Assembly: GCA_021154885.1 (NCBI GenBank)
Contig: JAJKHS010000041.1
Coordinates: forward strand, 66,441-130,440
Length of the DNA stretch: 64,000 nucleotides
Direction of reading: 5' to 3'
Origin: Thermoanaerobaculum sp.
Lineage (GTDB): Bacteria; Acidobacteriota; Thermoanaerobaculia; Multivoradales; UBA5704
Made by a program: the position numbers and the translations under genes
The notes under the pieces: generated by a model
Database searches by the model: none
Told to the model about the DNA's origin: nothing
What the model saw: the letters and a program-made list of their open reading frames with translations, nothing else
Shown here: piece after piece, positions 33,901 through 61,312 of the stretch
Position numbering within the stretch: the first letter of the stretch is position 1
How the letters are laid out: each line of letters opens with the position of its first letter

Positions 33901-36100
33901 CGCCTCGGCGCGCCTCGTCGCGGTGTCCGGCGACGGCCAGCAGGGGGTGATCGGCATGGCGCTGCCGGCACCGCTGGTGGCCGTAGCGCAGGATACGGCC
34001 GGACTGCCGGCGGTGGGCACGACCGTGGTGTTCGAGGTGCGGGGCAACGATGGTTCCCTCGATGGCGGCCGGCGGCGGCTGGCGGTTGTCACCGACTCCG
34101 CGGGCCGGGCAGCCGTCCACTTCACCCTCGGCACCCGTGCCGGAGTGGGCAATCAGGTGGTGGTGGCCTCGGCCGCCGGCTACGGCGAGCCGGTCGCCTT
34201 CCTCGCGTCGGCGCTGGCGGGCGAGCCGGCCGCCATCGTGGTGGACGCCGGCGACCAGCAGGTGGGAGTCGCCGGCCAGCCACTGCCTCGCCCGCTGATC
34301 GCTGTCGTCACCGACAGCGGGCACAACCGCCTGCCCGCCATCGCCGTGCATTTCTCGGTGGTCAACGGCGCCGGGCGTCTCCCCAACGGGCTCGACCAGA
34401 TGGTGATCGCCACCGATGGCGACGGCCGCGCCATCACGCCGTTCACCCTCGACCCTCAGGAGGGAGTCGCCAACAACACGGTGGTGGCACGCATCGAGGG
34501 ACTGCCCAACGGTCCGCTGGCGAGCTTCACCGCCTCGGGGCTGTCGGCCGGCGATCCGGCCCGGACCTCGATCAGCGGCATCGTGCTCGACAATCAGAAC
34601 GACCCGATCCCGGGAGTCACGATCCGCATTCTCGACACTTCGCTGACCGCGCAGACCGACGCGCGCGGCGCCTTCAGGATCAGCGGCGCGCCGGTGGGCA
34701 CGGTGCGCATGCTGGTGGACGGCTCGACGGCGGCGCGTCCCGGTTCGTGGCCTGACCTCGAGTACACCGTCACCACCATCCCCGGGCGCGACGTCACGGT
34801 GAACATGCCGATCTTCCTGCTGCCCCTCGATCTCGCCCACGGGCTGGCGGTCGACGAGACGCACGGCGGCACCCTCACCCTGCCGGACCTGCCGGGTTTC
34901 GCGCTGGTGATCGCTCCAGGCTCGGTGACCTTCCCCGGCGGCAGCCGCTCAGGGGTGGTGAGCGTGACCGCCGTGCACTCCGACAAGGTACCCATGGTGC
35001 CCAACTTCGGCCAGCAGCCGCGGTTCATCGTCACCATCCAGCCGGCCGGCGCCCGCTTCGAGCCCCCGGCACGGCTCTCGCTTCCCAACGTCGAGGGGCT
35101 GGCGCCGGGCCAGGTGACGGAGATGTATTCGTTCGATCACGACCTCGGCCATTTCGTGAGCATCGGCCCGGCCACGGTGAGCGATGACGGCTCCACCATG
35201 GTGGCCAATCCGGGGGTCGGGATCGTCAAGGCCGGCTGGCACTGCGGCGGCAGCTCGTCGAGCTCGGGGACGCCCCATCACTGCGCGGATTGCCAGAAAT
35301 GCGAGAACGACTGCTGCGTTCCCGACCCGGCCAAGAACAACCAGGGCTGTGACGACAAGGACAAGTGCACGGTCGACGACAAGTGCAACAACGGCAACTG
35401 CAAGGGCCAAACGGTGAAAGTGACGATCACCAGGGCGCCGTCCTTCATCTGTGCCGGCAACAGCAAGCCGGTCGCGGCGACGATCACGCCGGCCAGCCGG
35501 ACCATCACCTGGAAGAGCCTGCAGCCAGCGAACCTCACCGTCTCCGGCGGCACCTCGGGGACGGCCACCGGAGTGAAGAAGGGGTCGGCCACGATCCAGG
35601 CGAGCGACTCGCAGACCGACTGCAATCAGGATTCCCGTTCGATCCGGGTGGTGGACATGAGCGACTTCAACGGCATGTTCGGCGAGAAGAGCTGGTGCGT
35701 GGCCAGCCTCGGGAACCCGCTGGCCGTCGCCGCCTGTGCGCGGGCGCGGCAGATCGCCGGCCAGGTCGTCGCCTGGCAACTGAGAACGTTCCACGGGGCT
35801 TGCGCGAAAATCAACGGCGACCCTGAGGGAACGATGGCGGACGCGGGCCGGCACGCCTACCTGTCCTGCGCCCTGCACAGCGACAGTTTGACGTCGCTCT
35901 ATGCGGACACGATCCTCAACCTGCACGAGCAGGATGCGTCGCAGGACTGCCTGAGCCACGAGCAGGACGTCAACAACAACGAGGTCGGCAAGTCGAACGC
36001 GTCATCCGGGGTCGACTGCGCGCAGGCGGCGCTCCAGTCGCTCGCCGCTGGCCGCCTGCAAATCAACAATCCGCCGCCGGCGGGGACCTCATGCCCATGA
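30995..36100 (+). CDS. Giant secreted multidomain protein (1701 aa)
   Basis: A GTG at 31042 gives a signal peptide VNAKKTLVGCLFLCLGLAARSDA. Two tandem N-terminal DNRLRE-like modules of about 200 aa each end in ...WTEAGVTWNC and ...WTETGATWNC. They are followed by at least eight bacterial Ig-like domains, a carboxypeptidase-regulatory-like domain, a Cys-rich linker and an unassigned C-terminal domain of about 230 aa. Confidence 0.8.
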   Translation: MRSRIQSGSSVCEGGRVNAKKTLVGCLFLCLGLAARSDAQTVTLQAVADASLRQGSANQNRGGDPTLQLAGDGRVLLRFDQAAIAAAVGSGRLVSASLELFVHSASGSWGSGGRPIEAHRATADWTEAGVTWNCAVDTNPANGKPDCATRWDGGTFDDDASDSILETSADHVWLPFDVTADVATFLTGTPNQGWLIVKADDDQSGKADYGSREGIAAERPRLVLLVESAAHDSVPPSLAITSPDQPILVNQPAPTVVVEYADGGSGVDLATLQVLVDGQDITASCATGPQSATCHAPTLAAGSHAVQARLKDRAGNAAQASAAFQLLLGPGPHLVTFQTVGDTYIRKGDANKNFGAEPILRLRQSGQNRALVQFDSQSLATALTGATVVSASLELHIKKNGRNWGKTGRTIDAHRLTTAWTETGATWNCANDANPTNGSPDCAAQWAGGGFAATPTASVLHTRDLAGWVRYDVTADVAAFTRGTADFGWLLKKTEENKSGLVEYDSRQGTTGNAPRLVVVFTTPSGGGDTTLPTVAITAPAEGSFVASPTPTVVATYSDTGSGVDPASVRLVVDGVDRTAQAQVTVSGLTFTPAAPLAEGAHTSQVTVKDRAGNAAQATRGFTTDTVAPVVGLTLPAYAKALPLVVNGTVSDTDPAVQVVVNGAPATVTGSTFQAALVLLEGANPVSVIAMDRAGHQGTASGSVILDQRPPALRLETPSPNQVFNRPAARVAGTVSDENGIATLQVNGVAVSPAADGGFETSVPLSEGAQTITVAATDVAGNRRALDVAVTRLTLPEVTITAPADLGTLAATTVMVRGAVSSPGLAVAVNGLRATVSGTDFSVEIPLVEGGNIITAVATAADGRSGSATINVVRDLTPPHLSIDQPRAGASVRAAAVTVAGLVNDIVAGTVNAPQAQVKVNGRPARVANRSFLVEGVPLQAGDNTLTAEAVDASGNVAQVSIVVRRETGASARLVAVSGDGQQGVIGMALPAPLVAVAQDTAGLPAVGTTVVFEVRGNDGSLDGGRRRLAVVTDSAGRAAVHFTLGTRAGVGNQVVVASAAGYGEPVAFLASALAGEPAAIVVDAGDQQVGVAGQPLPRPLIAVVTDSGHNRLPAIAVHFSVVNGAGRLPNGLDQMVIATDGDGRAITPFTLDPQEGVANNTVVARIEGLPNGPLASFTASGLSAGDPARTSISGIVLDNQNDPIPGVTIRILDTSLTAQTDARGAFRISGAPVGTVRMLVDGSTAARPGSWPDLEYTVTTIPGRDVTVNMPIFLLPLDLAHGLAVDETHGGTLTLPDLPGFALVIAPGSVTFPGGSRSGVVSVTAVHSDKVPMVPNFGQQPRFIVTIQPAGARFEPPARLSLPNVEGLAPGQVTEMYSFDHDLGHFVSIGPATVSDDGSTMVANPGVGIVKAGWHCGGSSSSSGTPHHCADCQKCENDCCVPDPAKNNQGCDDKDKCTVDDKCNNGNCKGQTVKVTITRAPSFICAGNSKPVAATITPASRTITWKSLQPANLTVSGGTSGTATGVKKGSATIQASDSQTDCNQDSRSIRVVDMSDFNGMFGEKSWCVASLGNPLAVAACARARQIAGQVVAWQLRTFHGACAKINGDPEGTMADAGRHAYLSCALHSDSLTSLYADTILNLHEQDASQDCLSHEQDVNNNEVGKSNASSGVDCAQAALQSLAAGRLQINNPPPAGTSCP

Positions 36101-36846: not shown

Positions 36847-39800
36847 ATGGCCATGGGAAAGGCAATTTGGATCTGGATCGCGCTGCTGGCCGGCACCCTG
36901 CCCCTGGGGGCGCAGACGCCGACATCGCTGGAGCTGCGCTCGCCGAAGAGCACCCTGGCGCCGGGGGAGGTCGTACAGCTCCGGCTCATCGCCACCCTCT
37001 CGAACGGCAGTCAGCAGGACGTCACGACCGCCCCCGGCGTCTCCTACTCCGCGTCCTTCCTGGGCGAGGAAAATCCGTTGCTCTCCGTGGACGATGCCGG
37101 CAGAGTCACTGCCGAGGCCCCGGGCTCACAGGTTGTCTACGGGTTCTATCAGGACCTCTTCGCCGGGATCGTGCTCTCGGTGATCAGCGGCGTGGATTCC
37201 GACGGCGACGGCATGCCGGACGCCTGGGAGCTCCAGTACGGACTGAATCCTGCCGACCCGAGCGACGCCGCCTCCGACGCGGACGGCGACCACCTCTCCG
37301 CGCTGGCTGAATTCCGCGCCGGGACCGACCCCCGCAACCCCGACACCGACGGTGATGGCATCCCGGACGGGGAGGAGGTACAGGCCGGTCTCCAGCCGCT
37401 GAAAGCCGACACGGACGGCGACGGCCTGAGCGACGGCGAGGAGAGACGGATCGGCACCGATCCGTCCAGGCTGGACACCGACGGCGACGGCATCGCCGAC
37501 GGCGACGAGGTCGCGGCGGGCACCGATCCGCTGACCCCGCAGCCGCCGGTCGATGGCCGGGAGATTCTGGCGCTCGATGAGCACTGCATGGTGAGCGTGC
37601 TCAATCGCACGGCCAAGGTCCAGCCAGGCGGCGGGTGGGTGTTGCCCAACGTGCCGGCCAACCAGGGGCCGGTGCGGGTGCGGGCCACTTGCGTCGAGGA
37701 TGGCGTCACCCGCTCCGGCCAGTCCGACCTGATCGACGTTCCCCCCAACGGTATCCTGCGGGTGGCGGAGATCCGCTTCCAGGATCCCACGCCGATCCCG
37801 GCGAGCCTGGCGCTGACCGCGCCACAGACGCAGCTCACCGGGGTGGGACAGACGGTCCAACTGGCGGTACGCGCCGCGTTCGCGGGCGGCGCCACCGTCG
37901 ACGTCACCGCTGGCTCACGCGGCACCAGCTACCGGTCCAGCAATCCGGCCATCGCCAGCGTCGATGCCGGCGGCCTGATCACCGCCCGGTTGAGCGGCGT
38001 CGTGCTGGTGAGCGCTCTCAACGAGGGGGCGCTCGGCGTCGTCCGCGTGCAGGTCCTCGCTGCCGCGGACAGCGACGGCGACGGCCTGCCCGACGACTAT
38101 GAGATCGCCCACGGTCTCGATCCCAACGACCCGGCCGACGCGCTCAAGGACCACGACGGCGACGGCCTGTCGACCCTCGATGAGTTCCGTGGCGGGCTCG
38201 ATCCTTTCAACGCGGACACCGACGGCGACGGCTTGCTCGACGGCGACGAGCTCAACCGCTACCACACCAATCCGCTGCTCCGCGACACGGACGGCGACGG
38301 GATCTCCGACGGCCTGGAGATCCAGAGCGGCAGCGATCCGCTCGATCCCGCGAGCTTCAACCTGGCACCGATCGTCCAGAGCCTGACGGTGCAGCCGGCG
38401 ACGCTCAACATTACCTTCAACACGGCGTTGGGGGAGGCCTCGCAGCGGCTGGACGTCAAGGCGCGGCTGATCGACGGCACGGTGCTCGACGTGCGCCGCC
38501 GCCGCTACGGCACCAGCTACAGCTCCAGCGATCTCACGGTGGCTAACTTCAGTGGTGAGGACGGCGTGGTCTTCGCCGGCCAGGACGGTACGGCCATCGT
38601 CACCGTCAGCCTCGGCAGCCGCTCGGCCACCGTGCAGGTGGTGGTGACGAGCTTTTCGCCGCAGCCTCTCTCGTTCCTGCCCCTGCCGGGCTTCGCCAAC
38701 GGCGTGGACGTCGCCAGCCCGTACGCCTACGTGGCGTCGGGCCGCGCCGGCCTGGTGGTGGTCGACGCCTCCAACCCGCAGGCGCCGTTCGTCGCCGCGA
38801 CGCTGGCGCTGCCCGGCAACGCCAATGCCGTGAAGGTGGCGGGGGGCTATGCCCACGTGGCCGCCGGCTCGGCCGGCCTGGTGATCGTCGACGTGCGCAA
38901 CCCCAGGTCGCCGGCTGTCGCCGGCCGCATCGACACGCCCGGCGATGCCACCGACCTCGTCCTCCGGGACGGGCGCGCCTATGTCGCCGACGGCGCGAGC
39001 GGCCTGTTCATCGCCGACGTCAGCAATCCCGCGGCCCCCCTGCGGCTGGGCTCGATTCCCACGGCGGGCACCGCCCGCGGCGTCGACACCGATGGGCGCC
39101 TGACCGTAGTGGCGGAGGACTTCGCCGGGTTGGAGGTGATCGACGTCAGCGATCCGGCGGCGCCGTTCCTCCTGGGCTCGACGGCCACCCGGCCGGACGG
39201 CAGCTCCCATGCCGCCGCCGTCGTGCTGCGCGGCCACTATGCCTACGTGGCCGACGGCGCCAGCTTCAACCTCGGCGGGCTGCGCACAGTCGACCTCTCG
39301 GAGCCGGGCACGCCGGTGGTGGTGGGCGCGAGCAGCGACTCTTTCTCTCTGACCTCCCTGGTGTTGGACGGCCCCATCGCCCTCGCCGCGGACGTTTTCT
39401 TCGTCAACGCCGTTCCCATCTTCAACGTCGGCGGCACCACGCCCGCTTTCTCGGCGGAGGTGGACTTCTCCCAAGCCCCGAGCTTCCGCGACGACAACGG
39501 CAACGGCGTCGCCATCGACAACGCCGGGCTGGTCTTCATGGTGGGCGCCCGCGGGCAGATCACCGACAACGGAACCTTCGGCGATACGGGGCTCCACATC
39601 GGCCGCTACAAGATCCTGCAGGACTTGGCCGGCATTCCGCCGGAGGTGAGCCTCACGGCGCCGGCGGACGGCTCGTCGGCCCCCGAGCGCAACCCGCTCC
39701 TGGTGCGCGCCAGCGCCACGGACGACGTCCAGGTGGCCTCCGTCCGCTTCCTGATCGACGGCGTCAGCGTGGCCGAGGTCTTCAAGGCTCCCTACTTGGC

Positions 39801-42135
39801 CACCGTGCGGGTGCCGGCGGGAGTGCCGTCGTTCAAGCTGACCGCGGTGGCCACCGATCTCGGCGGCAATCAGAGCGAATCCGCTCCGGTCGTCGTGACC
39901 GTCATCCCGGACGACAAGCCCCAGGTGTCGTTCCTGGCGCCGGTGGCCGGGGCCCGGTTCATCGAGGGCGCGCCGGCGGAGATGGCGGCGACGGCGAGCG
40001 ACGACGTGCAGGTCGACTCCGTCGAGCTGCTGGTCGACGGCGTCTCGCAGGGCGTCTTCGGGCCACCCTACCGGACGACCTTCAGCGTGCCGGTGGGCGT
40101 CACCCAGACGACGCTGACGGCCGTGGCCACCGACAGCGCGGGCCAGACGGCGACGGCGACGCTGGTGGTGGGGATCGATCCCGATCAGCCGCCCACGGTG
40201 GCCGTGCTGTCTCCCACCGCCGGAGCCAACGTGATCGAGGGGAGCCGGCTGGAGGTGGCGGTGGGCGCCATCGACGACGTCGGCATCGATCATGTCCACC
40301 TGGACGCCGACGGCCAGCCGGTGGGCGATGCCTTCGGGGCTCCCTACCTCTTCTCGCTCCGGGCGCCGGCCGGCGCTCCGGAGCTGCGGCTGACCGCCAC
40401 CGCTCAGGACACGCTGGGACACACGGCGACCGCTGAGATCGTCGTGAACGTCATTCCCGATCCGCTCACCACAGCGGTGGGCCGGGTCGTCGACTCGAGC
40501 GGCGTGGCGGTGGCCGGCGCCGCGGTCGACTGCCTGGGCGTGTCGGGAACCACTGACGCCGCGGGGGCGTTCTCGGTGCCCGGAGTCCCCACCGTCTCGG
40601 CCGTCTTCTGCGAAGCGCAGGCGGCCAGGGCCGGCGGCGTGCTCGCGGGCAACTCGGCCGCCGTGCCGCCGCTACCGGGCGGCACGACCGCGGTCGGGGA
40701 CATCGTGATCTCGTTGCACCTGCTCTACCTTGGCTCCGGCGGCGGTAGCCAGAGAAGCCCGGGCCGGCTGCTGGTTCTGGATGACACGGGAGCCGGCCGC
40801 CTCATCGACTGGAGCCGGCCCGTTCTTCCCGTGGGGCTCTCCGGGCTCACCTTCGACGGCGACGGGACGCTCTGGGCCTCGACTCAGCCGGAGATTCCAA
40901 TCCCCCAACTCGTCGCCCGGAGCCGCGCCAAGTCCGCCAACCTCGGCGTGCAGCAGGGCACGAGCCAGCTCCTGCGCTTCGATCCTGAGACCGGCGCCGT
41001 CCTCGCCACCCTCGGGCCGTTCCTCCTGGAGAACGAGGAGATCCCGATCGGGCTTCAGGACCTCACGTTCGCCCCGGCCACGGGCACCCTCTATGCCTTG
41101 AGCGCCGGCTTCGTGGACCGGAAAATCGTCGCCCTCGACCTCTCGACGCAGGTGGCGCGGGTCCTCAACCCGAGCCTGCCGTTCGAAGCCTCCGGCCTGG
41201 CCGTGGGGCCAGACGGCCAGCTCTATCTGTTCATCTCGGGATTCACGAACGAGCTGTGGACCGTCGATCCGGCGACCGGCGCGATTGTCGACCAGCAGTC
41301 CTTGACCGGCACCGTGGGAGCCTCGGCCGGGGGCGGCGAGCTCGGCGGCATGACGCTCAAGCCGGGTACTCGCACGTTCGTGCTGACCTCGCCTGCCGAC
41401 GGCAGGGCCCTCTACGAGCTCGACCTCGGGACACTGGCAATCACCGAAGTCTCCAACCCCGCGGGCGACCTCGCCGGCGCCGGTCTCCGGGCCCTGGCTT
41501 TCCGGCCGCTGGGCAGCGCGGCGGGCACGGTGACGACCGTGCGCGGTCTGGTGGTCGATCCCGATGGGCAGCCGGTGGCGGCAGCGGACGTGGTCTCGCT
41601 GGGAGCCGCCACCACCACCGGAGCCGATGGCCGCTTCGAGATGCCCGGCCTCACGGTGCGCACCGGCCGCGTGCGGGTGGAGGTGAGCCTGCCCAGCTCT
41701 TCGCCGTCGCCTCTCGCCGGTTCGAGCGTCCTGACTCCTGGCGTGCCGCCGGTCGCGGGCGGCGTCACCGACCTCGGCACGATCATCCTCGGCGCCCCGG
41801 TCTGCGTTACCGGCTTCTTCCACGCGAACCGCTGCGTCCAGGGTCCGGTCGGCGGCACCTTCGACCTCTATCAGGAGGACCGCACGGGCCAGCTCTCGCT
41901 CGTCGATCACGTGCTGACCGACCCCACCGGCCGCTTCTGCGCGATGCTGCGGCGCAACTTCTTCTATGTCGCACGCCGCGAGGACGTCGCGTGTTCCTGC
42001 GGCACGGTCTCGTCCTGCCACGCCTTCCTCGCCGTGACGGACCCGGAAGCCTCGGGTGCTTGCGGCGATCCGGCCGCCGCGTGCCAGGACCTGGGAACCC
42101 TCAACCTCAACTGCGACTTTTTCTGCGGCTCGTAG
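36847..42135 (+). CDS. Giant secreted protein (1762 aa) with TSP3 calcium-binding repeats, LVIVD repeats, multiple Ig-like domains and a Cys-rich C-terminus
   Basis: The signal peptide is [25 protein letters not shown] Big_2 domain follows. Repeated DxDGDGxxD (TSP3) motifs occur twice (37.2-37.5 kb and 38.1-38.3 kb). [12 protein letters not shown] and [12 protein letters not shown] motifs (LVIVD repeats) are present. Confidence 0.8.
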
Positions 42136-52889: not shown

Positions 52890-53129
52890 ATGCCTCTCGT
52901 CCTCTTGCAGAAGGGTAAGTCTCTGCCGTTGCACGAAGGAGATCACGACGCCGTCACCAATCCCAACACCAAGGAAGGTCAGTACGTGCTGGCCTTCAAC
53001 CTGATGCCGCTCTCGATTCAACACCACATCCTCCCCCACGGGCACCAGGCGTTCGTCGTTCCCAAGGGCGGAGCGTCGGTCGAGAACAACGGGCACGTCG
53101 ACCTCGTCGTCATCACTCCGGGTCTGTGA
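52890..53129 (+). CDS. Small hypothetical protein (79 aa), possibly cupin-like
   Basis: An AAGGAAA ribosome-binding site is present. The His-rich stretch is HHILPHGHQAFVV. Evidence is weak. Confidence 0.3.
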   Translation: MPLVLLQKGKSLPLHEGDHDAVTNPNTKEGQYVLAFNLMPLSIQHHILPHGHQAFVVPKGGASVENNGHVDLVVITPGL

Positions 53130-53216
53130 TCGCGGTGCCCGGCGGGGAGACCCGCCGGGCGCATCGGTCCCGGCGCCGTGGTATCGTAGGCACGACAGGA
53201 AAGGAGCTGACACCAA

Positions 53217-53671
53217 TGAGCCCTCGCCGAACCTCCCTCGTCCTCCTCCTCCTCAGCGCCGCACTGTCTTTTACAATGCTCGGCCAAGCCCGGGCCGAAT
53301 CGCCGAAGACCGAGATCCAGGGCGCGGCGATCCTCGATCACCCCTGTGGCAAGGTCGCCGTCAAGCACATGGGGCTGGTCCATGCCGGAAAGCTCGAAGA
53401 GGCCGCCAAGCTCGGCACCCAGGAGATGCAGGACGGGTGGAAAGCCCTGCCCGCCGACGACCGCAAGATGATGACCGAGATGATGAAGGCGACGTCGAAA
53501 TCGGGGGAGCAGTTCTCGGCGGAGATCAAGGCCGGCGGGCTCCTGGTCGTCGAAGGCAAGAGCGCAACGCTGACCGTCAAGCAGGACCACAAGGACGCCA
53601 ACGGCACCAGCAGCGAAACGCTGACGCAGCGCTACGTGCTCGACGGCGCCACGTGCCGGATCTCGCGGTAG
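53217..53671 (+). CDS. Secreted hypothetical protein (151 aa)
   Basis: An AGGAG ribosome-binding site is present. The signal peptide is MSPRRTSLVLLLLSAALSFTMLGQARA. Confidence 0.5.
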
Positions 53672-53815: not shown

Positions 53816-54643
53816 TCACGATTTGACGCACATGCGCCGCTGGTTCGACCACTCGTACTGGCAGCCGTAGCTGCCCGTGCCGAAGAACGGCGAGGGCGTC
53901 CAGGCGCATTTGTCGTCGATCTCGGCGCCTGAGCTGTCCCACCAGCCGCCGCCCGTCGGATCGGTCACCGCCTCGCGGGTTTCGTGACAGAAGAAGTGCT
54001 CCTGGTTCTGCACGTCCGACCAGCTCGTGACCTTGCAGCCGCTGCAGCTCGGATAAGGCTGGATCGAATACTTGATGGCGTTGGCGCCGCTGCCGTTCGA
54101 GCTGTGATAAGCGCAGTAGGCGAGGGCGGGGCCGCCGCACGAGGTGGCTCCCGTGCCGTCGTCGGAGTACGAGGTCCTCGGGATCACCACCTCGTAGACC
54201 GTGCTGGCGTCGAAGGCATTGAACGCCAGATAACGGTTCACCTCGGCCCGGACGTTTGAGTCGGTGACCTTGGCCGGCGGCGCCGAGGTGTCGAACCAGT
54301 CGGGGGTTCCCGCGCCGAGGTTCGACGGTTGCACTCCGTACTCCTGAAGGACTTTGTATTCGGGGCTGGTGCCGAACTGGTTGCGGTCGGCCTGCAAGGT
54401 CCGGGCGTACGCGAAATCGGGAGAGGCGGCGTTGTTGAAGCTCGGTCCCCAGAAGACGAAGACCACTTTCGCCGAGACGATGATCCCGCCGCCATGGTTG
54501 ATCACGTTTCCGGCCTTGGCCACGATGGCGCCCCGGGCCGGAGTGTAGATGATTTGGGCCGGCAGCTCCTGGGCCGCGGCGGTCGCGGCCATGGCCAGGC
54601 CGCAAGACAGCGCCAACGGGTACTTGAGATCCTTCAGTCTCAT
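53816..54643 (-). CDS. Secreted cysteine-rich hypothetical protein (275 aa), last gene of the ECF sigma operon
   Basis: An AAGGAGG ribosome-binding site lies 5 nt upstream of ATG 54643. The signal peptide is MRLKDLKYPLALSCGLAMAATAAAQ. Eleven cysteines are present and there is no known domain. Confidence 0.55.
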   Translation of the reverse strand: MRLKDLKYPLALSCGLAMAATAAAQELPAQIIYTPARGAIVAKAGNVINHGGGIIVSAKVVFVFWGPSFNNAASPDFAYARTLQADRNQFGTSPEYKVLQEYGVQPSNLGAGTPDWFDTSAPPAKVTDSNVRAEVNRYLAFNAFDASTVYEVVIPRTSYSDDGTGATSCGGPALAYCAYHSSNGSGANAIKYSIQPYPSCSGCKVTSWSDVQNQEHFFCHETREAVTDPTGGGWWDSSGAEIDDKCAWTPSPFFGTGSYGCQYEWSNQRRMCVKS

Positions 54644-54724: not shown

Positions 54725-55156
54725 TCACTCCGTCCGCTTGCGCAGCTCCATGAGCTTGGCCTGCTGCGGCTCGCTGAGCAGGTTCTTGAGGCGAATGAGG
54801 AGAGAGAGCTGCGTCCGCTTGATGTCCCGCTCGAGGGCCAGGACCTTGTCCGCCGCCGCCAGCACCGCCGCCTCGTCCACCGGCCGGGCCTGAAGCAGGT
54901 GGACCATCTTCTGGGTCGCCTCTTGCAGCTCAAACTGCAGGTCGACGAACTTCGACTGGGCCTTCTGCACGCTCTCCTTGACCGCCGTGCGCTGCCGCTC
55001 GTCGAGGCCGAGGTCCTGGCTGTACTTCATCACCACGTCGGGCGGGAAGAGGTATTTGCCGAGCGGATCGTCGCCCGCGGGCTCGGCCCACGCGACGGCG
55101 GCGGTGGCGAGCGCGGCGAGGAGGAGGAAAAGGGCTCTCAGTTTCATAGTGCTCAT
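54725..55156 (-). CDS. Periplasmic LTXXQ-motif (Spy/CpxP/ZraP-like) protein
   Basis: The signal peptide is MSTMKLRALFLLLAALATAAVAWA. A helical body carries LDERQ and LSEPQ motifs. It overlaps the anti-sigma gene by 4 nt. Confidence 0.6.
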   Translation of the reverse strand: MSTMKLRALFLLLAALATAAVAWAEPAGDDPLGKYLFPPDVVMKYSQDLGLDERQRTAVKESVQKAQSKFVDLQFELQEATQKMVHLLQARPVDEAAVLAAADKVLALERDIKRTQLSLLIRLKNLLSEPQQAKLMELRKRTE

Positions 55157-55575
55157 GACGGGGATCTCCTTTCTTGAGAGGGTGGGGTTGGGCTGAAATC
55201 GAGCAGGCTGCGGTCGAGGCGCGCCGGGTCGGCGAGGATCTCCCGGCCGGAGGTTTCGAGCAGGAACTCGGTGGGGGAGCGCCACTCGGCGAGCGACGAC
55301 GCGCCTTCAGCGGAGGCTCCGCCGGCAGGGGGGCCGGGCTTCCGCAGGCCGAGCCAGGCGGCGAGCGCGACGAGCACGACGAGGGCGATCGCCGCCGCGG
55401 CCGCTGCCAGCAGGCGGGGACGCCGTGGCGAGGGGCTGCGCCGGGAGCGCGCCCGGCCGCGCCGCACCACCTCGGCGAAGGGCGGGCACTGCTCCCCCTC
55501 TTCGCGGCGCAAGGCCGAGAAGGCCGCCGCCAGCTCGCGATCGTCGCGTTCGCGTTCGCGGTCACCGCGGCTCAT
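55153..55575 (-). CDS. Putative anti-sigma factor (single transmembrane helix)
   Basis: Length is 140 aa. A cytoplasmic N-terminus with a Cys near FAEV is followed by the transmembrane helix LLAAAAAAIALVVLVALAAWL. It overlaps the sigma gene stop by 4 nt. Confidence 0.55.
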   Translation of the reverse strand: MSRGDRERERDDRELAAAFSALRREEGEQCPPFAEVVRRGRARSRRSPSPRRPRLLAAAAAAIALVVLVALAAWLGLRKPGPPAGGASAEGASSLAEWRSPTEFLLETSGREILADPARLDRSLLDFSPTPPSQERRSPS

Positions 55576-56105
55576 GGCCGGGCCTCCTGCGCGAGCGGTG
55601 CGAAGGGGCCGAGCCGCTCCTGAAGTCCCGCCTTGCCGCGGTGGTAGTGCGTGCGGGCGCTGCCCAGCGAGATGCCGAGGACGCGCGCCGCCTCTTCGAC
55701 GGTCAGGTCCTGATAGAAGACGAGATGGAGCACTTCGCGCTGGCGGGCCGGCAGGGCTTGCAGCGCCGCGCGCAGGGAGCGGCTCGTCTCCGCGGCGCCG
55801 AGGAGCGACTCGGGGGTCGGCACCGGCGCCGGGCTCGGGCGCCCGTCGCGCCAGCGCAGGCCCGCCACGCTGCGCAGCCAGCGGCTGCGTCGCCGCTCGG
55901 CCGCGGTGCGGCGGATGACGCCGAAGAGCCACGTCTTGAAGCTCGACCGCTCGTCGAAGCGGGCGCGGCCGTCCAGGATCTTGAGATAGGTCATCTGCAG
56001 CACCTCCTCGGCTTCGTCCCGATCCCACCGGCAGCAACTGAGGGCCCAGCCGGCGCTGGCCGGGTGGAGCTCCTCGAGGCATCGTTCGACGGGTTCGCCG
56101 GTCAT
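55572..56105 (-). CDS. ECF-type RNA polymerase sigma factor
   Basis: Sigma-70 region 2 is YLKILDGRARFDERSSFKTWLFGVIRR. Region 4 is LPARQREVLHLVFYQDLTVEEAARVLGISLGSARTHYHRG. Confidence 0.85.
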   Translation of the reverse strand: MTGEPVERCLEELHPASAGWALSCCRWDRDEAEEVLQMTYLKILDGRARFDERSSFKTWLFGVIRRTAAERRRSRWLRSVAGLRWRDGRPSPAPVPTPESLLGAAETSRSLRAALQALPARQREVLHLVFYQDLTVEEAARVLGISLGSARTHYHRGKAGLQERLGPFAPLAQEARP

Positions 56106-56238: not shown

Positions 56239-56253
56239 CATTCTTTGGCACCG
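56239..56253 (+). promoter_or_regulatory. Possible sigma-54 (-24/-12) element TGGCAC-N5-CTGC upstream of the M36 protease gene
   Basis: The sequence is ttTGGCACcgtagCTGCg, about 185 nt upstream of the start. The -12 half matches imperfectly. Confidence 0.2.
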
Positions 56254-56437
56254 TAGCTGCGACCTCAGGCGTCCCGACGAAGCTCATAGGAGGTGAGACC
56301 GTGTCGGACCTAGTCAGGGGTGGCGTGAGCCGCCGCCTCGTCTTCCCAGCCTCCCTGTCTACTTTTGCGCCCTGCCTGTTTTCCGGGCTCATGGAGCCCG
56401 TGTTTTCAACGCCTTGCCAGATTCAGGAGGTAACATC

Positions 56438-59400
56438 TTGTTGAGCCTCGCCCGAGGTAGCATCGTTCTGATCGCCGTGCTCACCTGCCTCTCGCCCGCG
56501 GGAGCGGTTTCCGCTCCCCCCCTCTTGGCCAGGCCCTCGCTCGGCAACATGGTCGATGCCCGGGTCAATTACAAGCAGGCGTACGAACGGGCCACCGCCG
56601 TGCGTGGCGCGCGGGTGGCCTCCGGCCTCTCCGAGGCCCGTACCCAGGCGGCATCCATCGCCACCGCCATCGCCAAGCACCGGGCCTCGCAGCCCGGTCT
56701 CGAGGTGAGGCTGTCGAACCTGACCGGCGCTCCGTCGGCGGTACGCAGCAAGATCGGCCCGCTGACCGGGCCCGCCCCGGGCCGCAGCAGCGAGGACATC
56801 GTCCGCGACTTCCTGCGCCAGTACGGCGACGTCTACGGCCTGTCGAGCGCCGACGCCGCCGACCTCGTCGCCCTGGGGGACAGCCCCGGCGGCACGAGCG
56901 GCCTGCGCATGCTCCGCCTGGAGCAGCAGATCGACGGCCGTCCCGTGTTCCAGAGCGAGACCCGCTTCCTCCTCGACCGTGAGGGGCGGCTGATGAAGAC
57001 CCTCGGCCTGATGGTGCCGCATGCGCGCGCCTTCGCCGGGCGGGTCGATCCGGCGAGCCTGATGCTGCCGGAGCAGGCCGTCGTCCGCCTGCTCGAGGCC
57101 GACGGCAAGACCGCCGTGGCTTCGTCGTTCGCCGTCGCCGCCGAGGAGAACGGACGGATGGTGCTGTCGGAGAACGACGGCTTCGTCGCCGGCCCCATCG
57201 CCGCCCGCCAGGTGCTCTTCCCGCTCGCCCCCGGCCTGCTGGTGCCGGCCTGGTCGCTGGTGGTGTTCACCGAGGGCGATCAGGACTGGTACGCCATCGT
57301 CGACGCCGAGACCGGCGACGTGCTGTGGCGCAAGAACATCCGCGACTACGCCTCGGCTCACGACGCCCGCTTCCGCGTCTACGTGCAGGCCGACGGCACG
57401 ACGCCGGCCGACAGCCCGGCGCCCCAGTCGCCGGACACCGCGGTGCCCGGCGGCGGCACTCAGTACCCGGAGATCGCGCCCACGGTCGTCAGCATGCACA
57501 CCGCCATGGACCCGGTCGCGAGCCCGAACGGCTGGATCGACGATTGCCCGGCCGGCGGCTGCACCGCCAACGAGACCCAGACCCTGGGCAACAACGCGGT
57601 CGCCTGCCTGGACCGGACGGTCGGCGGAGCGAACACCAACGCCTGCGATACGGATGTCAACAGCGTGCTCGATGGCAGCGGGAAGCCGATGGGCAACCCG
57701 GACTCCAACAGCCGCAACCGCGACTTCCTCGGCACCACGCCGCGCGACTTCCAGACCGGCTTCATCCCGCCGCCGCAGGGCGGCAACCCGGAAGCCGGCC
57801 AGTCGGCGACCAACGCCGTGACGGCCACGTCGGCCGCCGAGAACAGCTTCCGCCGCGGCGTCGTGACCCACCTCTTCTACGTCGTCAACTGGTATCACGA
57901 CCAGCTCTTCAAGCTCGGCTTCGACGAGGCCGCGGGCAACTTCCAGCGCACCAACTTCAGCGGCATGGGCCTGGGCAACGACCGCGTCAATGCCGACGCG
58001 GAGGACGGCGGCAGCACCAACAACGCCAACTTCTCGACGCCGCCCGACGGCACCTCGGGACGGGCGCAGATGTACCGCTTCACGGGTCCCACCATCGACC
58101 GCGACGGCGACCTCGACCAGGAAGTGCTGATGCACGAGCTGACGCACGGCACCAGCAACCGGCTGGTGGGCAACGCCGCCGGCCTCAACTGGGATCCGGC
58201 GCGCGGCATGGGCGAGGGCTGGAGCGACTTCGTGGCCCTCTCCCTGCTCAACAACACCAACGCCGACAATCCCGTGGGCCAGTACGCGAGCGGCGCCTAC
58301 GCCACCTACAAGTTCCTGGGTTTACTCGACAACTACGTCTACGGCATCCGCCGCTTCCCCTACACCCCCAATCACGCCATCAACCCGATGACCTGGGCCG
58401 ACGTCGACGACGTCACCTACAACACGAGCGGCGGGATCCCCGAGACCCCAATCCCCAATTTCAGCCTGGCCGGCGCCATGGAGGTCCACAACTCGGGCGA
58501 GATCTGGGCCTTGACTCTGTGGGGGGTGCGCTCCCGGATCATCCTGGATCCGGTAGGGGCCAACGGCAACGTGCCGGCCGGCAACCACACGATGCTTCAA
58601 CTGGTCATCAACGGGCTCAAGATGACGCCGATCAACCCGAGCTTCACCGACGCCCGTAATGCCATCATCGACGCCGACTGCGCCACCAACGCCTGCGCCA
58701 ACGAGCAGTCGATCTGGGACGGCTTCGCCGACCGCGGTCTGGGCTACGGCGCCCATGCCGATTACAACGTCATCGGCCGCTACGTGGCGAGCCACGAGGG
58801 CGTCCACGAGTCGTTCACCTCGCCGGTGCTCGACGTGGTCGATCCCTTGACCGACGTCACCATCGACGACAGCGCCGACAACAACAACGGCGCCGTCGAT
58901 CCGGGCGAGGCGGTCAAGCTCACGGTCAAGCTGACCAACCCCTGGCGCGGCGCGGGCAAGGCCGTCACCGGCGGCACGGCGACCCTCACCACCTCCACCC
59001 CCGGCGTGACGATCTACGACAACACGGCGAGCTTCGGCGCCATCGCGCCGCAGGGCACGGCCGTCGCCGGTGACAGCTTCACCATCACCGTGGATCCGTC
59101 GGTCGTCTGCGGCAGCGCCATCGACTTCACGCTTTCCACCACCTCGAACATCGGCACCACCTCCACCACCTTCCGCCTGCGGGTGGGCAACCGCAACGGC
59201 ACCGACGCGGTCGTGACCTACACGGGCGATCCCAATCCGGACCTCACCATCACCAACGGCCGCCCCCGCGGCGTCTTCCATCAGATCAACGTCACCGACG
59301 ACTTCGAGATCGCGGACGTCAATTTCCGCCTCGACAGCGTCACCCACCCCGGCGTCGGCGACCTGACCGCCATGCTGCGCTCGCCGGGCGGCATCGGCGT

Positions 59401-61126
59401 CGACATGGTCATGTTGATCGACGGTCTCAACGACCTCGGCGGCACCAGCATCGTCAACATGGTGATCGACGACGACGTGGTGCCCGGACCGACGACCGAC
59501 ATGGTCGAGGCGACGACAGCCGACGCGCCGTACACCCGGTCGTGGCTGCCGGTCTACAACTCGCCCTGGGCGGCCCTCGTCAATCCGGCTCTGCCGGCGG
59601 ACCCCGTGGGCAACCTGACGCCTTTCAACGGCTTGAGCACCAAGGGAACCTGGTCGACGCTGATGGCCGACGTGTTCACGGCGTCTCAGGGTGGCACGGA
59701 CGGCAACGGCACCTTCAACGCCTGGTCGATCCTCGTCACGCCCGTCCACTTCGACTGCGTGGCCTTCGTGGCGTCGGCCGCCGTGACGGCGACCAAGACG
59801 GTGACCGGCACCTTCCGGGTCGGCGGCACCGTGACCTACACCGTGACGCTCACCAACAACGGCACCGCCAACCAGGCTGACAACGCCGGCCACGAATTCA
59901 CCGACACCCTGCCGGCCGGCCTGACGCTGGTCAGCGCCACCGCCACCAGCGGCACGGCGGCGACCGCGGGCAACACCGTCAACTGGGACGGCTCGCTCGC
60001 ACCTCTGGGCGGCAGCGTCACCATCACCATCACCGCCACCGTCAACGCCGGTGCTCAAGGCACGACGATCAGCAACCAGGGCACCGCGTCATTCGACAGC
60101 AACAACGACGGCACCAACGACGCGACTGCCTCCACCGACGATCCGGGAGTCGGCGGCGCCACCGACCCGACGGTCTTCGCCGTCGCCAACGCCGCGGTGA
60201 CGGGCACCAAGACGGTGAGCGGCACCTTCAAGACCGGCGGCACCGTCACCTACACCATCGTGCTCTCGAACTCGGGCTCGTCGGCCTCGCCCGACAACCC
60301 CGGCAACGAGCTCACCGACGCCGTGCCCGCCGGCCTGACGGTCGTCAGCGCCACCGCCACCAGCGGCACGGCGGCCAACGCGGGCAACAACGTCACCTGG
60401 AACGGCAGCATCCCGGCAGCCGGCAGCGTGACCCTCACCATCACCGCCACGGTCAACGCCGGCGCGCAGGGGACCACGCAATGCAACCAGGCGAGCTTCG
60501 CCTTCGACGCCGACCTGAACGGCACCAACGAATCGACGGGCACGACGGATGATCCGGCGGTCGGCGGTGCCAACGACCCGACGTGTCTGGCGGTCCAGGG
60601 AGTGGCTCTCTCGGCCACCAAGACCGCGAGCGGCACCTTCGTGACCGGCAGCACGGTGACCTACACGGTGGTCATCTCCAACACCGGCAACACGGCCTCG
60701 CTCGACACCCCCGCCAGCGACGAGTTCACCGACGTCCTGCCGGCGTCGCTGACGCTGGTCAACGCCACGGCGACCTCGGGCACGGCGACGCCGAGCGGCA
60801 ACACCGTGACCTGGAACGGGACCATCCCCGCCGGCGGCACCGTGACCATCACCATCACCGCCACCATCAACGTCGGCTTTGCGCAGACCACGGTCAGCAA
60901 CCAGGGGAGAGTCTCCTTCGACTCCGACCTCGACGGCACCAACGACACGACGGTCCAGACCGACGACCCGGCGGTCGGCGGCGCCAGCGACCCGACGACG
61001 TTCGTGGTCTCCCCGGCCACGGCGGCCGAGGTGCCGACGCTCTCCGAGTGGGGCCTTGCTCTCCTCGGTCTCAGCCTGCTCCTCGCCGGCTGGAGCGTGA
61101 TGCGCCGCCGGACGGAGCGGGCTTAA
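56438..61126 (+). CDS. Secreted M36 (fungalysin-type) zinc metalloprotease with P-domain-like region, four DUF11 repeats and an IPTL-CTERM sorting tail
   Basis: AGGAGG precedes a TTG start 7 nt downstream. The signal peptide is LLSLARGSIVLIAVLTCLSPAGAVSA. HELTHGTSNRL is followed by GEGWSDF, the M36 signature. Four repeats of about 130 aa each contain T-x-T-x-T, TVTYT and DDPAVGGA motifs. The C-terminus is IPTLSEWGLALLGLSLLLAGWSVMRRRTERA. Confidence 0.85.
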   Translation: MLSLARGSIVLIAVLTCLSPAGAVSAPPLLARPSLGNMVDARVNYKQAYERATAVRGARVASGLSEARTQAASIATAIAKHRASQPGLEVRLSNLTGAPSAVRSKIGPLTGPAPGRSSEDIVRDFLRQYGDVYGLSSADAADLVALGDSPGGTSGLRMLRLEQQIDGRPVFQSETRFLLDREGRLMKTLGLMVPHARAFAGRVDPASLMLPEQAVVRLLEADGKTAVASSFAVAAEENGRMVLSENDGFVAGPIAARQVLFPLAPGLLVPAWSLVVFTEGDQDWYAIVDAETGDVLWRKNIRDYASAHDARFRVYVQADGTTPADSPAPQSPDTAVPGGGTQYPEIAPTVVSMHTAMDPVASPNGWIDDCPAGGCTANETQTLGNNAVACLDRTVGGANTNACDTDVNSVLDGSGKPMGNPDSNSRNRDFLGTTPRDFQTGFIPPPQGGNPEAGQSATNAVTATSAAENSFRRGVVTHLFYVVNWYHDQLFKLGFDEAAGNFQRTNFSGMGLGNDRVNADAEDGGSTNNANFSTPPDGTSGRAQMYRFTGPTIDRDGDLDQEVLMHELTHGTSNRLVGNAAGLNWDPARGMGEGWSDFVALSLLNNTNADNPVGQYASGAYATYKFLGLLDNYVYGIRRFPYTPNHAINPMTWADVDDVTYNTSGGIPETPIPNFSLAGAMEVHNSGEIWALTLWGVRSRIILDPVGANGNVPAGNHTMLQLVINGLKMTPINPSFTDARNAIIDADCATNACANEQSIWDGFADRGLGYGAHADYNVIGRYVASHEGVHESFTSPVLDVVDPLTDVTIDDSADNNNGAVDPGEAVKLTVKLTNPWRGAGKAVTGGTATLTTSTPGVTIYDNTASFGAIAPQGTAVAGDSFTITVDPSVVCGSAIDFTLSTTSNIGTTSTTFRLRVGNRNGTDAVVTYTGDPNPDLTITNGRPRGVFHQINVTDDFEIADVNFRLDSVTHPGVGDLTAMLRSPGGIGVDMVMLIDGLNDLGGTSIVNMVIDDDVVPGPTTDMVEATTADAPYTRSWLPVYNSPWAALVNPALPADPVGNLTPFNGLSTKGTWSTLMADVFTASQGGTDGNGTFNAWSILVTPVHFDCVAFVASAAVTATKTVTGTFRVGGTVTYTVTLTNNGTANQADNAGHEFTDTLPAGLTLVSATATSGTAATAGNTVNWDGSLAPLGGSVTITITATVNAGAQGTTISNQGTASFDSNNDGTNDATASTDDPGVGGATDPTVFAVANAAVTGTKTVSGTFKTGGTVTYTIVLSNSGSSASPDNPGNELTDAVPAGLTVVSATATSGTAANAGNNVTWNGSIPAAGSVTLTITATVNAGAQGTTQCNQASFAFDADLNGTNESTGTTDDPAVGGANDPTCLAVQGVALSATKTASGTFVTGSTVTYTVVISNTGNTASLDTPASDEFTDVLPASLTLVNATATSGTATPSGNTVTWNGTIPAGGTVTITITATINVGFAQTTVSNQGRVSFDSDLDGTNDTTVQTDDPAVGGASDPTTFVVSPATAAEVPTLSEWGLALLGLSLLLAGWSVMRRRTERA

Positions 61127-61170
61127 GGCTCGCAGCCGCACTCGCGGTCACCTGGCGGGCGTTGACGACG

Positions 61171-61205
61171 CCCCACCCCGCAGTCCGGGGGTGGGGCGTT
61201 TTTTA
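61171..61205 (+). terminator. Rho-independent terminator after the M36 protease gene
   Basis: The stem-loop reads ccccacccc-gcagtccg-ggggtgggg, followed by cgttttttatt. Confidence 0.7.
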
Positions 61206-61312
61206 TTGGAGACTTGATTGAAAGCCTGTAACGCACTGGCCGTGCGCTACGCCTATCTACGTGTGGGAGACCTTCCGGGTCTCCGAGCTGTCGTCGAAAG
61301 GAGATGTCGCAC

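Follow-up and report, generated by a model that had tools for sequence, protein, structure and literature searches.

Within a 64,000-nucleotide stretch of DNA from Thermoanaerobaculum sp. (contig JAJKHS010000041.1 of assembly GCA_021154885.1; hereafter, the window), the longest open reading frame (ORF) of its region, 56414..61126 on the forward strand, encodes a protein that joins a predicted M36 (fungalysin-type) zinc metalloprotease head to a stalk of three tandem CLIPPER (DUF11) repeats and a C-terminal IPTL-CTERM sorting tail (Table 1). The reading that we favor, and to which we assign a probability of about 0.68, is that the product is a cell-surface-displayed zinc endopeptidase, held on an isopeptide-locked stalk, whose tail is processed by an exosortase H (XrtH), the gene for which would lie at another place in the genome.

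The gene is real, its composition is native, and NCBI already annotates it in the sense in which a preliminary description of this DNA had read it, because it has a ribosome-binding site, a coding-type G+C content at third codon positions (0.94), and 100% identity to a named NCBI entry. That entry (P0001; contig JAEKLO010000015.1 of assembly GCA_019509815.1, an Acidobacteria metagenome-assembled genome [MAG]) is called “IPTL-CTERM sorting domain-containing protein” and begins one codon after TTG 56438, giving 1561 aa. The window is a chromosomal segment of ~69% GC with housekeeping genes, judged by recognizable N-terminal sequences, and its host is an uncultured Thermoanaerobaculia-like acidobacterium of soil or sediment.

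The catalytic head covers positions 21 to 368 of the 368 positions of the Peptidase_M36 profile (PF02128, 306 bits against a cut-off of 23.3, E = 5.2e-91). Aligned over ~315 residues to the solved fungalysin of Aspergillus fumigatus (Mep, PDB accession numbers 4K90 and 7Z6T; E = 2e-53), it places HELTH and EGWSD column for column on their counterparts, and these columns are at least 90% conserved in 32 homologues. We take H566, H570, and E593 to be the zinc ligands and E567 the catalytic base, as in other gluzincins. Together, these matches support the prediction of an M36 zinc metalloprotease.

N-terminal to this head lies a presumptive Sec signal peptide, with equivalent N termini in orthologues, followed by a pro-region of ~320 aa that is conserved across the family. 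The pro-region has no sequence match in the PDB and no match to FTP (PF07504) in the Pfam search, so that it does not qualify as the FTP-type propeptide of the M36 family, and its PepSY match is sub-threshold (19.2 bits against a cut-off of 24); by analogy with the thermolysin and fungalysin families, it presumably acts as a propeptide. Reading the signal peptide as that of a lipoprotein was rejected because the cysteine is not conserved among orthologues; the -1 residue is Thr.

C-terminal to the head, an AlphaFold model of aa 781-1111 (predicted local distance difference test [pLDDT], 86; predicted template modeling score, 0.83) contains an immunoglobulin (Ig)/macroglobulin-like sandwich and a jelly-roll. 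The sandwich, for which Pfam returned no match, resembles in Foldseek the macroglobulin domains of complement C3/C5. The best Foldseek matches of the jelly-roll, with a probability of 1.00, are the kexin-type protease ASP (3WQB, E = 8.8e-07; also 3HJR), Kex2 (2ID4), and furin (5JMO). At the sequence level, the P-domain profile PF01483 gives 13.2 bits on the target (E = 0.1; cut-off, 21), which is sub-threshold, and PF01483 matches are precomputed for many close orthologues.

The stalk was recovered by several routes. PF01345 matches in three stretches (108 bits, E = 4.3e-31), a repeat hidden Markov model (HMM) finds three copies with 70 of 139 columns invariant, and, at the DNA level, Tandem Repeats Finder detects a 414-nt period in 2.9 copies at 76% identity. 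The isopeptide-forming domain model TIGR04226 scores 47.3 bits against 30 and TIGR01451 scores 57.8 bits against 24. Neither a single-sequence nor a profile query found a sequence-level match of the repeats in the PDB; the model of repeat 1 (pLDDT 96) has the CLIPPER structure 9IFR as its top PDB match (probability 1.00), followed by isopeptide-bonded Gram-positive pilins. The family PF01345/DUF11 was renamed CLIPPER in 2025, when the crystal structure 9IFR revealed a CnaA-like domain with a Lys-Asn isopeptide bond, catalyzed by an Asp, which confers thermal and protease stability (PMC12617251). In the repeat, K9, D45, and N102 are invariant across 14 diverse copies, yielding the candidate triads K1120/D1156/N1213, K1258/D1294/N1350, and K1395/D1432/N1488 in the target, whose spacing, compared by position, matches that of K715/D748/N806 in 9IFR. 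From these residues and the model, we infer that each repeat would form a Lys-Asn isopeptide bond. Two cysteines (C1349 in QCNQ and C1383 in PTCLAV) occur in the middle repeat only (60185-60598). An extra disulfide is common in the isopeptide domains of Acidobacteriota (PMC12617251), and by analogy these two residues may form it.

The C terminus has the tripartite layout of a sorting signal (motif, hydrophobic helix, basic cluster), in a protein that also begins with a signal-peptide-like sequence. The IPTL-CTERM models TIGR04174 (30.9 bits against 20.5) and PF18203 (25.3 bits against 20.8) both exceed their curated cut-offs, with the HMM match at the extreme C terminus (residues 1540-1566 of the 1570-aa ORF); the model NF033207, “midcut-by-XrtH,” reaches a sub-threshold 28 bits. 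This is the only such tail in the 64-kb window. The literature searched contains a single mention of IPTL-CTERM, for the surface-layer (S-layer) protein of Methylomirabilis lanthanidiphila, an IPTL-CTERM protein localized on the cell (PMC8671808), and says nothing of the enzyme.

These results support the core of the preliminary description, which had read the gene as an M36 protease with a P-domain-like segment, a DUF11 stalk, and an IPTL-CTERM tail. The 1562-aa ORF and its HEXXH and EGWSD signature hold up, the catalytic motif being intact rather than degenerate; the P-domain-like segment stands by its fold; and the tail passed the HMM search that had been proposed as a check. Other details needed amendment. 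Four repeats of ~130 aa had been counted, of which the stalk itself is upheld and the count is not, there being three of ~138 aa; the supposed fourth is probably the unrelated Ig-like sandwich. For the C terminus, the helix and the basic tail were correctly read, and the motif begins with V, not I. That M36 is uncommon in bacteria was overstated, as 570 proteins reached E<=1e-10 among the candidates tested and NCBIfam has three dedicated bacterial M36 families.

Full-length relatives number more than 100, at 53-91% identity and mainly from Thermoanaerobaculia. From species-representative genomes, 47 orthologous loci were recovered, most of them in MAGs of Thermoanaerobaculia, Holophagales, or other Acidobacteriota and some in bins labeled Burkholderiales or Xanthomonadales; some genomes carry two paralogues. 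HExxH and EGW[SG]D are kept in all complete copies. Members with an IPTL tail have 2-6 CLIPPER repeats, which explains the length classes among the relatives. The tail itself, with the family consensus [IV]-P-T-[LVA]-S-[ED]-x-G-L, is kept in 24 ORFs of related loci and in most of 120 database homologues; versions from proteobacterial bins have a PAAS/PIAS-type tail, and those of Blastocatellia have unrelated C-terminal domains and no CLIPPER repeats. Because relatives carry differing stalks and C-terminal tails, the M36 head is modular with respect to stalk and anchor, and the C-terminal tags are interchangeable.

Among these C-terminal exchanges, a subset of M36 relatives has, in place of the IPTL tail, a conserved module ending in ...HL[VI]IDVTGYFQ. 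The Blastocatellia relatives end in a ...AEYRQRFGQ segment that is putatively DUF4214-like (examples of such C-terminal swaps are P0058, P0076, P0079, P0086, and L014).

In the closely related Thermoanaerobaculaceae genome OY970330.1, the gene immediately upstream of the M36 orthologue (L002:2893-9261, minus strand) encodes a further tailed protein. At 2122 aa, it combines ~10 DUF11/CLIPPER repeats with an IPTL-CTERM tail that is valid by TIGR04174 (25.4 bits). The same genome holds a second M36 paralogue (L009), and another locus (L007) encodes a 296-aa protein with a looser tail. A second IPTL-CTERM protein beside an M36 orthologue fits a sorting system in which many substrates are served by one enzyme.

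The link between the tag and XrtH comes from other organisms. Metagenome contigs scanned with back-translated IPTLSEWG codons gave at least 120 loci with at least 109 tailed ORFs of very diverse sizes, and a cluster of membrane proteins of 180-240 aa adjoins some of the tailed genes. Seven adjacent membrane proteins (six from the cluster and one in L050) pass the exosortase H model TIGR04177 (87-120 bits against 86), and two weaker matches to a local XrtH HMM, in L066 and L148, bring the total to ~9 loci among the 120 listed. Their alignment contains the invariant Cys, Asn-x-x-Arg, and His that constitute the exosortase catalytic signature; the Joint Genome Institute names relatives “exosortase H (IPTLxxWG-CTERM-specific),” and exosortase H is already defined in NCBIfam as well. 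Gene adjacency on these contigs thus supports a pairing of the IPTL tag with XrtH, including in L050 and L102, high-GC contigs (65-66%) like that of the target, in which a bona fide XrtH stands next to IPTL-tailed genes.

Two further kinds of membrane protein occur at these metagenome loci. In four of them (Table 1), an ORF of ~200-240 aa with four transmembrane (TM) segments comes immediately after xrtH, in the same orientation; these 4-TM ORFs match no Pfam or NCBIfam family, form two BLAST clusters with no detectable relation to each other, and in L102 are represented by one flanked by two copies of xrtH. They may be an uncharacterized accessory component of the XrtH system. At two others (L057:1721-2404 and L154:2539-3210, both on the minus strand), homologous membrane proteins of ~225 aa adjoin IPTL-tailed genes; their sole match is to PF20154, the membrane domain at the N terminus of apolipoprotein N-acyltransferase, with 30.4 bits in L057 and, just under the cut-off of 27.1, 25.8 bits in L154, a possible hint of lipid-linked processing.

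In the mechanism that we propose, the Sec signal peptide would export a pre-pro-enzyme, whose pro-region would keep the M36 gluzincin head latent and aid its folding before being removed, while the Ig-like sandwich and the kexin-like P-domain would buttress the catalytic domain. The three CLIPPER domains, each locked by a spontaneous Lys-Asn isopeptide bond with Asp as the catalyst, would make up a stalk, rigid and resistant to proteases, on which the head is kept at a distance from the cell. The VPTLSEWG-helix-RRR tail would at first retain the protein in the inner membrane, where XrtH, as a membrane cysteine transpeptidase, would recognize the tail, cut at the motif, and transfer the protein for attachment to the surface. 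The protease would probably serve to digest extracellular protein for nutrition.

Several observations weigh against this proposal. The local XrtH HMM, run on all six-frame ORFs of the window and on all Acidobacteriota loci, detected no XrtH: neither the 64 kb of the window nor the next 10 kb downstream yielded one, and none turned up in the ~0.9 Mb that surrounds the 47 orthologues. The named XrtH matches among those listed come from Zixibacteria, Bacteroidales, and Phycisphaerales, not Acidobacteriota, and, among the matches listed in the XrtH profile search, none lies on a contig of an orthologue-bearing genome. Within the target's own family, Trp stands at motif position 7 in 18/61 tails (~30%), a departure from the canonical IPTLxxWG, and many relatives lack an Arg cluster and have AAWKISxS at the C terminus. 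The propeptide call has the sub-threshold PepSY match as its sole support, and in the literature searched there was no exosortase H substrate for which cleavage has been shown biochemically. To our knowledge, no route of exosortase cargo across the outer membrane has been described.

A sorting enzyme linked to the M36 gene was considered and rejected: the local HMM found no match, and 20 multi-TM neighbors of the orthologues are all transporters or unrelated proteins (CDF, LrgB, PAP2, MFS, TRAP, AI-2E, and one weak CPBP match).

An alternative is that an enzyme particular to the lineage, and not canonical XrtH, processes the tail (a different exosortase subfamily, for instance, or another intramembrane protease), the Thermoanaerobaculia motif having drifted from IPTLxxWG to [IV]PT[LVA]SxxG. 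The infrequent Trp and the relatives without an Arg cluster favor such an enzyme, as do the lack of an Acidobacteriota XrtH among the matches listed in the profile and exhaustive searches and the diversity of high-GC XrtH-like clades, a search seeded with the high-GC-like P0215 having returned 1548 XrtH-like clusters at E<=1e-10. The target's own tail, however, is a full xPTLSEWG that passes both curated IPTL-CTERM models, and high-GC contigs do carry bona fide XrtH beside IPTL-tailed genes (L050 and L102); moreover, the Acidobacteriota negative says little, covering only the best 120-150 matches (150 representatives in the seeded search) with almost no taxonomy. We therefore see only a slender chance that another enzyme does the work. 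Carrying least weight with us is the view that the tail is an unprocessed C-terminal TM anchor, its IPTL-like motif being incidental, and that the protease is tethered to the inner membrane and faces the periplasm. A helix followed by RRR is enough on its own to serve as a stop-transfer anchor, and no processing enzyme was found nearby, but the eight-residue motif is kept across dozens of diverging orthologues and in unrelated proteins, which implies that something recognizes it, and an enzyme of ~1500 aa on a rigid three-domain stalk would be hard to fit into the periplasm; we judge this highly improbable.

It is also conceivable that the tail is cut, by XrtH or by another enzyme, and that the protease is not anchored at all but escapes to the medium or to the exopolysaccharide matrix; the stalk would then serve only as a stabilizing or matrix-binding module. 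Exosortase systems were reportedly first described in connection with exopolysaccharide production, and an M36 (fungalysin-type) protease is said to figure in a study of Myxococcus outer-membrane vesicle cargo. In addition, the catalytic head can work without this anchor, because M36 relatives in other lineages bear different, non-anchoring C-terminal domains. Against release, a rigid, isopeptide-locked stalk of several domains and variable length (2-6 repeats) is how fibrillar proteins tethered to the cell surface are built (PMC12617251), and the single IPTL-CTERM protein that has been localized forms an S-layer and so remains on the cell (PMC8671808). We consider release unlikely, although it deserves to be kept in mind, and prefer surface display with processing by XrtH. 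Bolder and rather doubtful is the conjecture that Thermoanaerobaculia possess an undescribed lineage-specific exosortase-type enzyme that handles the relaxed tail in place of canonical XrtH, that these proteins form a fourth, unmodeled class of sorting-enzyme-dependent M36 proteases, and that stalk length is tuned to the thickness of the envelope or capsule.

Each module of the target belongs to a described family, and the concept of a sorting-signal-dependent bacterial M36 protease already exists. Three NCBIfam families likewise unite a large secreted bacterial M36 protease with a C-terminal sorting signal, namely, NF038112 (myxosortase dependent), NF038111 (rhombosortase dependent), and NF038113 (type IX secretion system [T9SS] dependent). 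The catalytic and post-catalytic region of the target aligns to all three (E = 5e-89 to 6e-75), but its scores (299 against 1500, 252 against 1700, and 298 against 885 bits) place it outside them, and the target differs from them in its CLIPPER stalk and in its tail, which is IPTL-CTERM where theirs are MYXO-CTERM, GlyGly-CTERM, or a C-terminal domain of the T9SS type. NCBIfam has no dedicated model for an XrtH-dependent M36 protease, and the target represents an IPTL-CTERM-tagged, CLIPPER-stalked M36 subfamily without a curated model of its own. Fungalysin itself (MEROPS M36) shares the catalytic fold and the HExxH and EGWSD motifs but is a soluble protease of ~390 aa in its mature form, made with an FTP propeptide that was not detected in the target; beyond it, the target has insertions, the Ig-like and P-like domains, the three CLIPPER repeats, and the membrane sorting tail.

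With the IPTL-CTERM/XrtH system the target shares the same tripartite tail (motif, helix, and Arg cluster), and tailed genes adjacent to xrtH are known from metagenomes; it departs from the canonical form in the initial V of its motif and in the poor conservation of Trp in its family. The S-layer example gives a surface destination, whereas in the target the sorted protein is a stalked enzyme rather than an S-layer subunit, and the lineage is acidobacterial. The fibrillar adhesin B9T28_05395 of Acinetobacter silvestris, the source of 9IFR (PMC12617251), likewise places a CLIPPER stalk between an N-terminal head and a C-terminal anchor and has its Lys/Asp/Asn triad at positions comparable to those of the target repeats, but its head is adhesive and its anchor OmpA-like, where the target has a protease and an IPTL-CTERM tail, and identity is 28%. 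The kexin-type subtilases (Aeromonas sobria ASP, Kex2, and furin) also have a jelly-roll P-domain directly after the catalytic domain, but they are serine proteases and the target is a zinc metalloprotease.

The significance is modest, and existing understanding is not overturned: a fourth pairing (IPTL-CTERM, presumably XrtH dependent) is added to the pattern of M36 proteases coupled to sorting systems. Thermoanaerobaculia and Holophagales from soils and sediments carry many members of the family, which may therefore have a part in the turnover of extracellular protein by these Acidobacteriota, few of which are in culture. Its members offer a natural stalk-length series for studying how isopeptide-locked CLIPPER stalks present enzymes, and a large, easily assayed protease cargo would make a convenient reporter for the XrtH/IPTL-CTERM system.

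Table 1. Features of the protease gene and of the XrtH loci. Positions are those of the window unless a locus is named, and residue numbers refer to the 1562-aa protein.
Feature	Position	Strand	Details
Coding sequence, predicted M36 metalloprotease prepro-form with stalk and sorting tail	56438..61126	+	1562 aa plus stop; ORF list
Shine-Dalgarno sequence AGGAGG	56424..56429	+	8 nt 5' of the TTG 56438 start; read from sequence
Putative Sec-type signal peptide	56438..56509	+	aa 1-24; MLSLARGSIVLIAVLTCLSPAGA/V; basic n-region, hydrophobic core, A-x-A site
N-terminal pro-region	56510..57472	+	aa ~25-345; presumed propeptide; weak PepSY-like element at aa ~269-296
Peptidase M36 catalytic domain	57497..58753	+	aa ~354-772; Pfam Peptidase_M36, E 5.2e-91
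HELTH motif	58133-58147	+	aa 566-570 (H566, E567, H570); aligned to HEYTH of 4K90/7Z6T
EGWSD motif	58214-58228	+	aa 593-597 (E593); aligned to EGW[SG]D of 4K90/7Z6T
Ig-like/macroglobulin-like beta-sandwich	58829..59188	+	aa ~798-917; AlphaFold and Foldseek
P-domain-like jelly-roll	59189..59755	+	aa ~918-1106; Foldseek
Three tandem CLIPPER (DUF11) repeats	59771..61012	+	aa 1112-1250, 1250-1387, 1387-1525; ~138 aa each
IPTL-CTERM sorting tail	61031..61123	+	last 31 residues; PF18203, TIGR04174
VPTLSEWG motif	61031-61054	+	read from sequence
TM helix	61055-61102	+	LALLGLSLLLAGWSVM, 16 residues; then basic cluster RRRTERA
Intrinsic terminator	61167..61206	+	hairpin 61167-61200, 13-bp GC-rich stem, then TTTTTT; terminator scan
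xrtH and 4-TM ORF	L060:615-1857	+	metagenome locus
xrtH and 4-TM ORF	L071:343-1534	-	metagenome locus
xrtH and 4-TM ORF	L165:5951-7131	+	metagenome locus
xrtH and 4-TM ORF	L102:3865-6059	-	metagenome locus

The flanks of the gene bore out one signal of the preliminary description and not the other. The clean terminator at the gene end was confirmed, its hairpin and U6 tract folding at -32 kcal/mol (z = -2.48). Upstream, a sigma-54-type element had been suggested, and a sigma-54-like site does occur (TGGCACCGTAGCTGC, 56246-56260); the window holds two matches against 0.31 expected, a count reached in 5 of 100 shuffles, and the element is present in 0 of 34 orthologous upstream regions tested. 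Because it is weak against shuffles and absent upstream of these orthologues, the site is probably due to chance, and a sigma-54-dependent promoter (-24 GG/-12 GC) was rejected. The 5' untranslated region also contains, ~35 nt before the start codon, a small GC-rich hairpin (CGGGCTCATGGAGCCCG) with TGTTTTC after it (56384-56406, plus strand); the hairpin looks like a terminator or attenuator. Rfam recognizes no RNA family anywhere in the window, this region and its hairpin included.

Divergent to the protease gene lies a three-gene operon (54725-56105, minus strand) whose products are an extracytoplasmic function (ECF) sigma factor, a small protein that is a putative anti-sigma factor, and a Metal_resist (PF13801) protein of the periplasm. 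Neither this operon nor the downstream genes are kept beside the orthologues, and the idea of a conserved operon or regulon was therefore rejected. Because the ECF operon is not found next to the orthologues, no regulatory link to it is supported, and the protease gene is a stand-alone unit.

Farther away, two giant secreted proteins are encoded on the plus strand, separated by a 247-aa ORF of no known function: one of 1701 aa (30995-36100) with four Glucodextran_B domains, CBM96, Big_13/Big_7, and CarboxypepD_reg, and one of 1762 aa (36847-42135) with bacterial TSP3 repeats, LVIVD repeats, Big_7, and CarboxypepD_reg. Neither has an IPTL-type tail. Closer to the protease gene are two secreted hypothetical proteins without a Pfam or NCBIfam family, one of 275 aa with a Cys-rich C terminus (53816-54643, minus strand) and one of 181 aa (53126-53668, plus strand). 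These two are the only neighbors shared with the closest genome, that of L002, where they directly flank the M36 gene.

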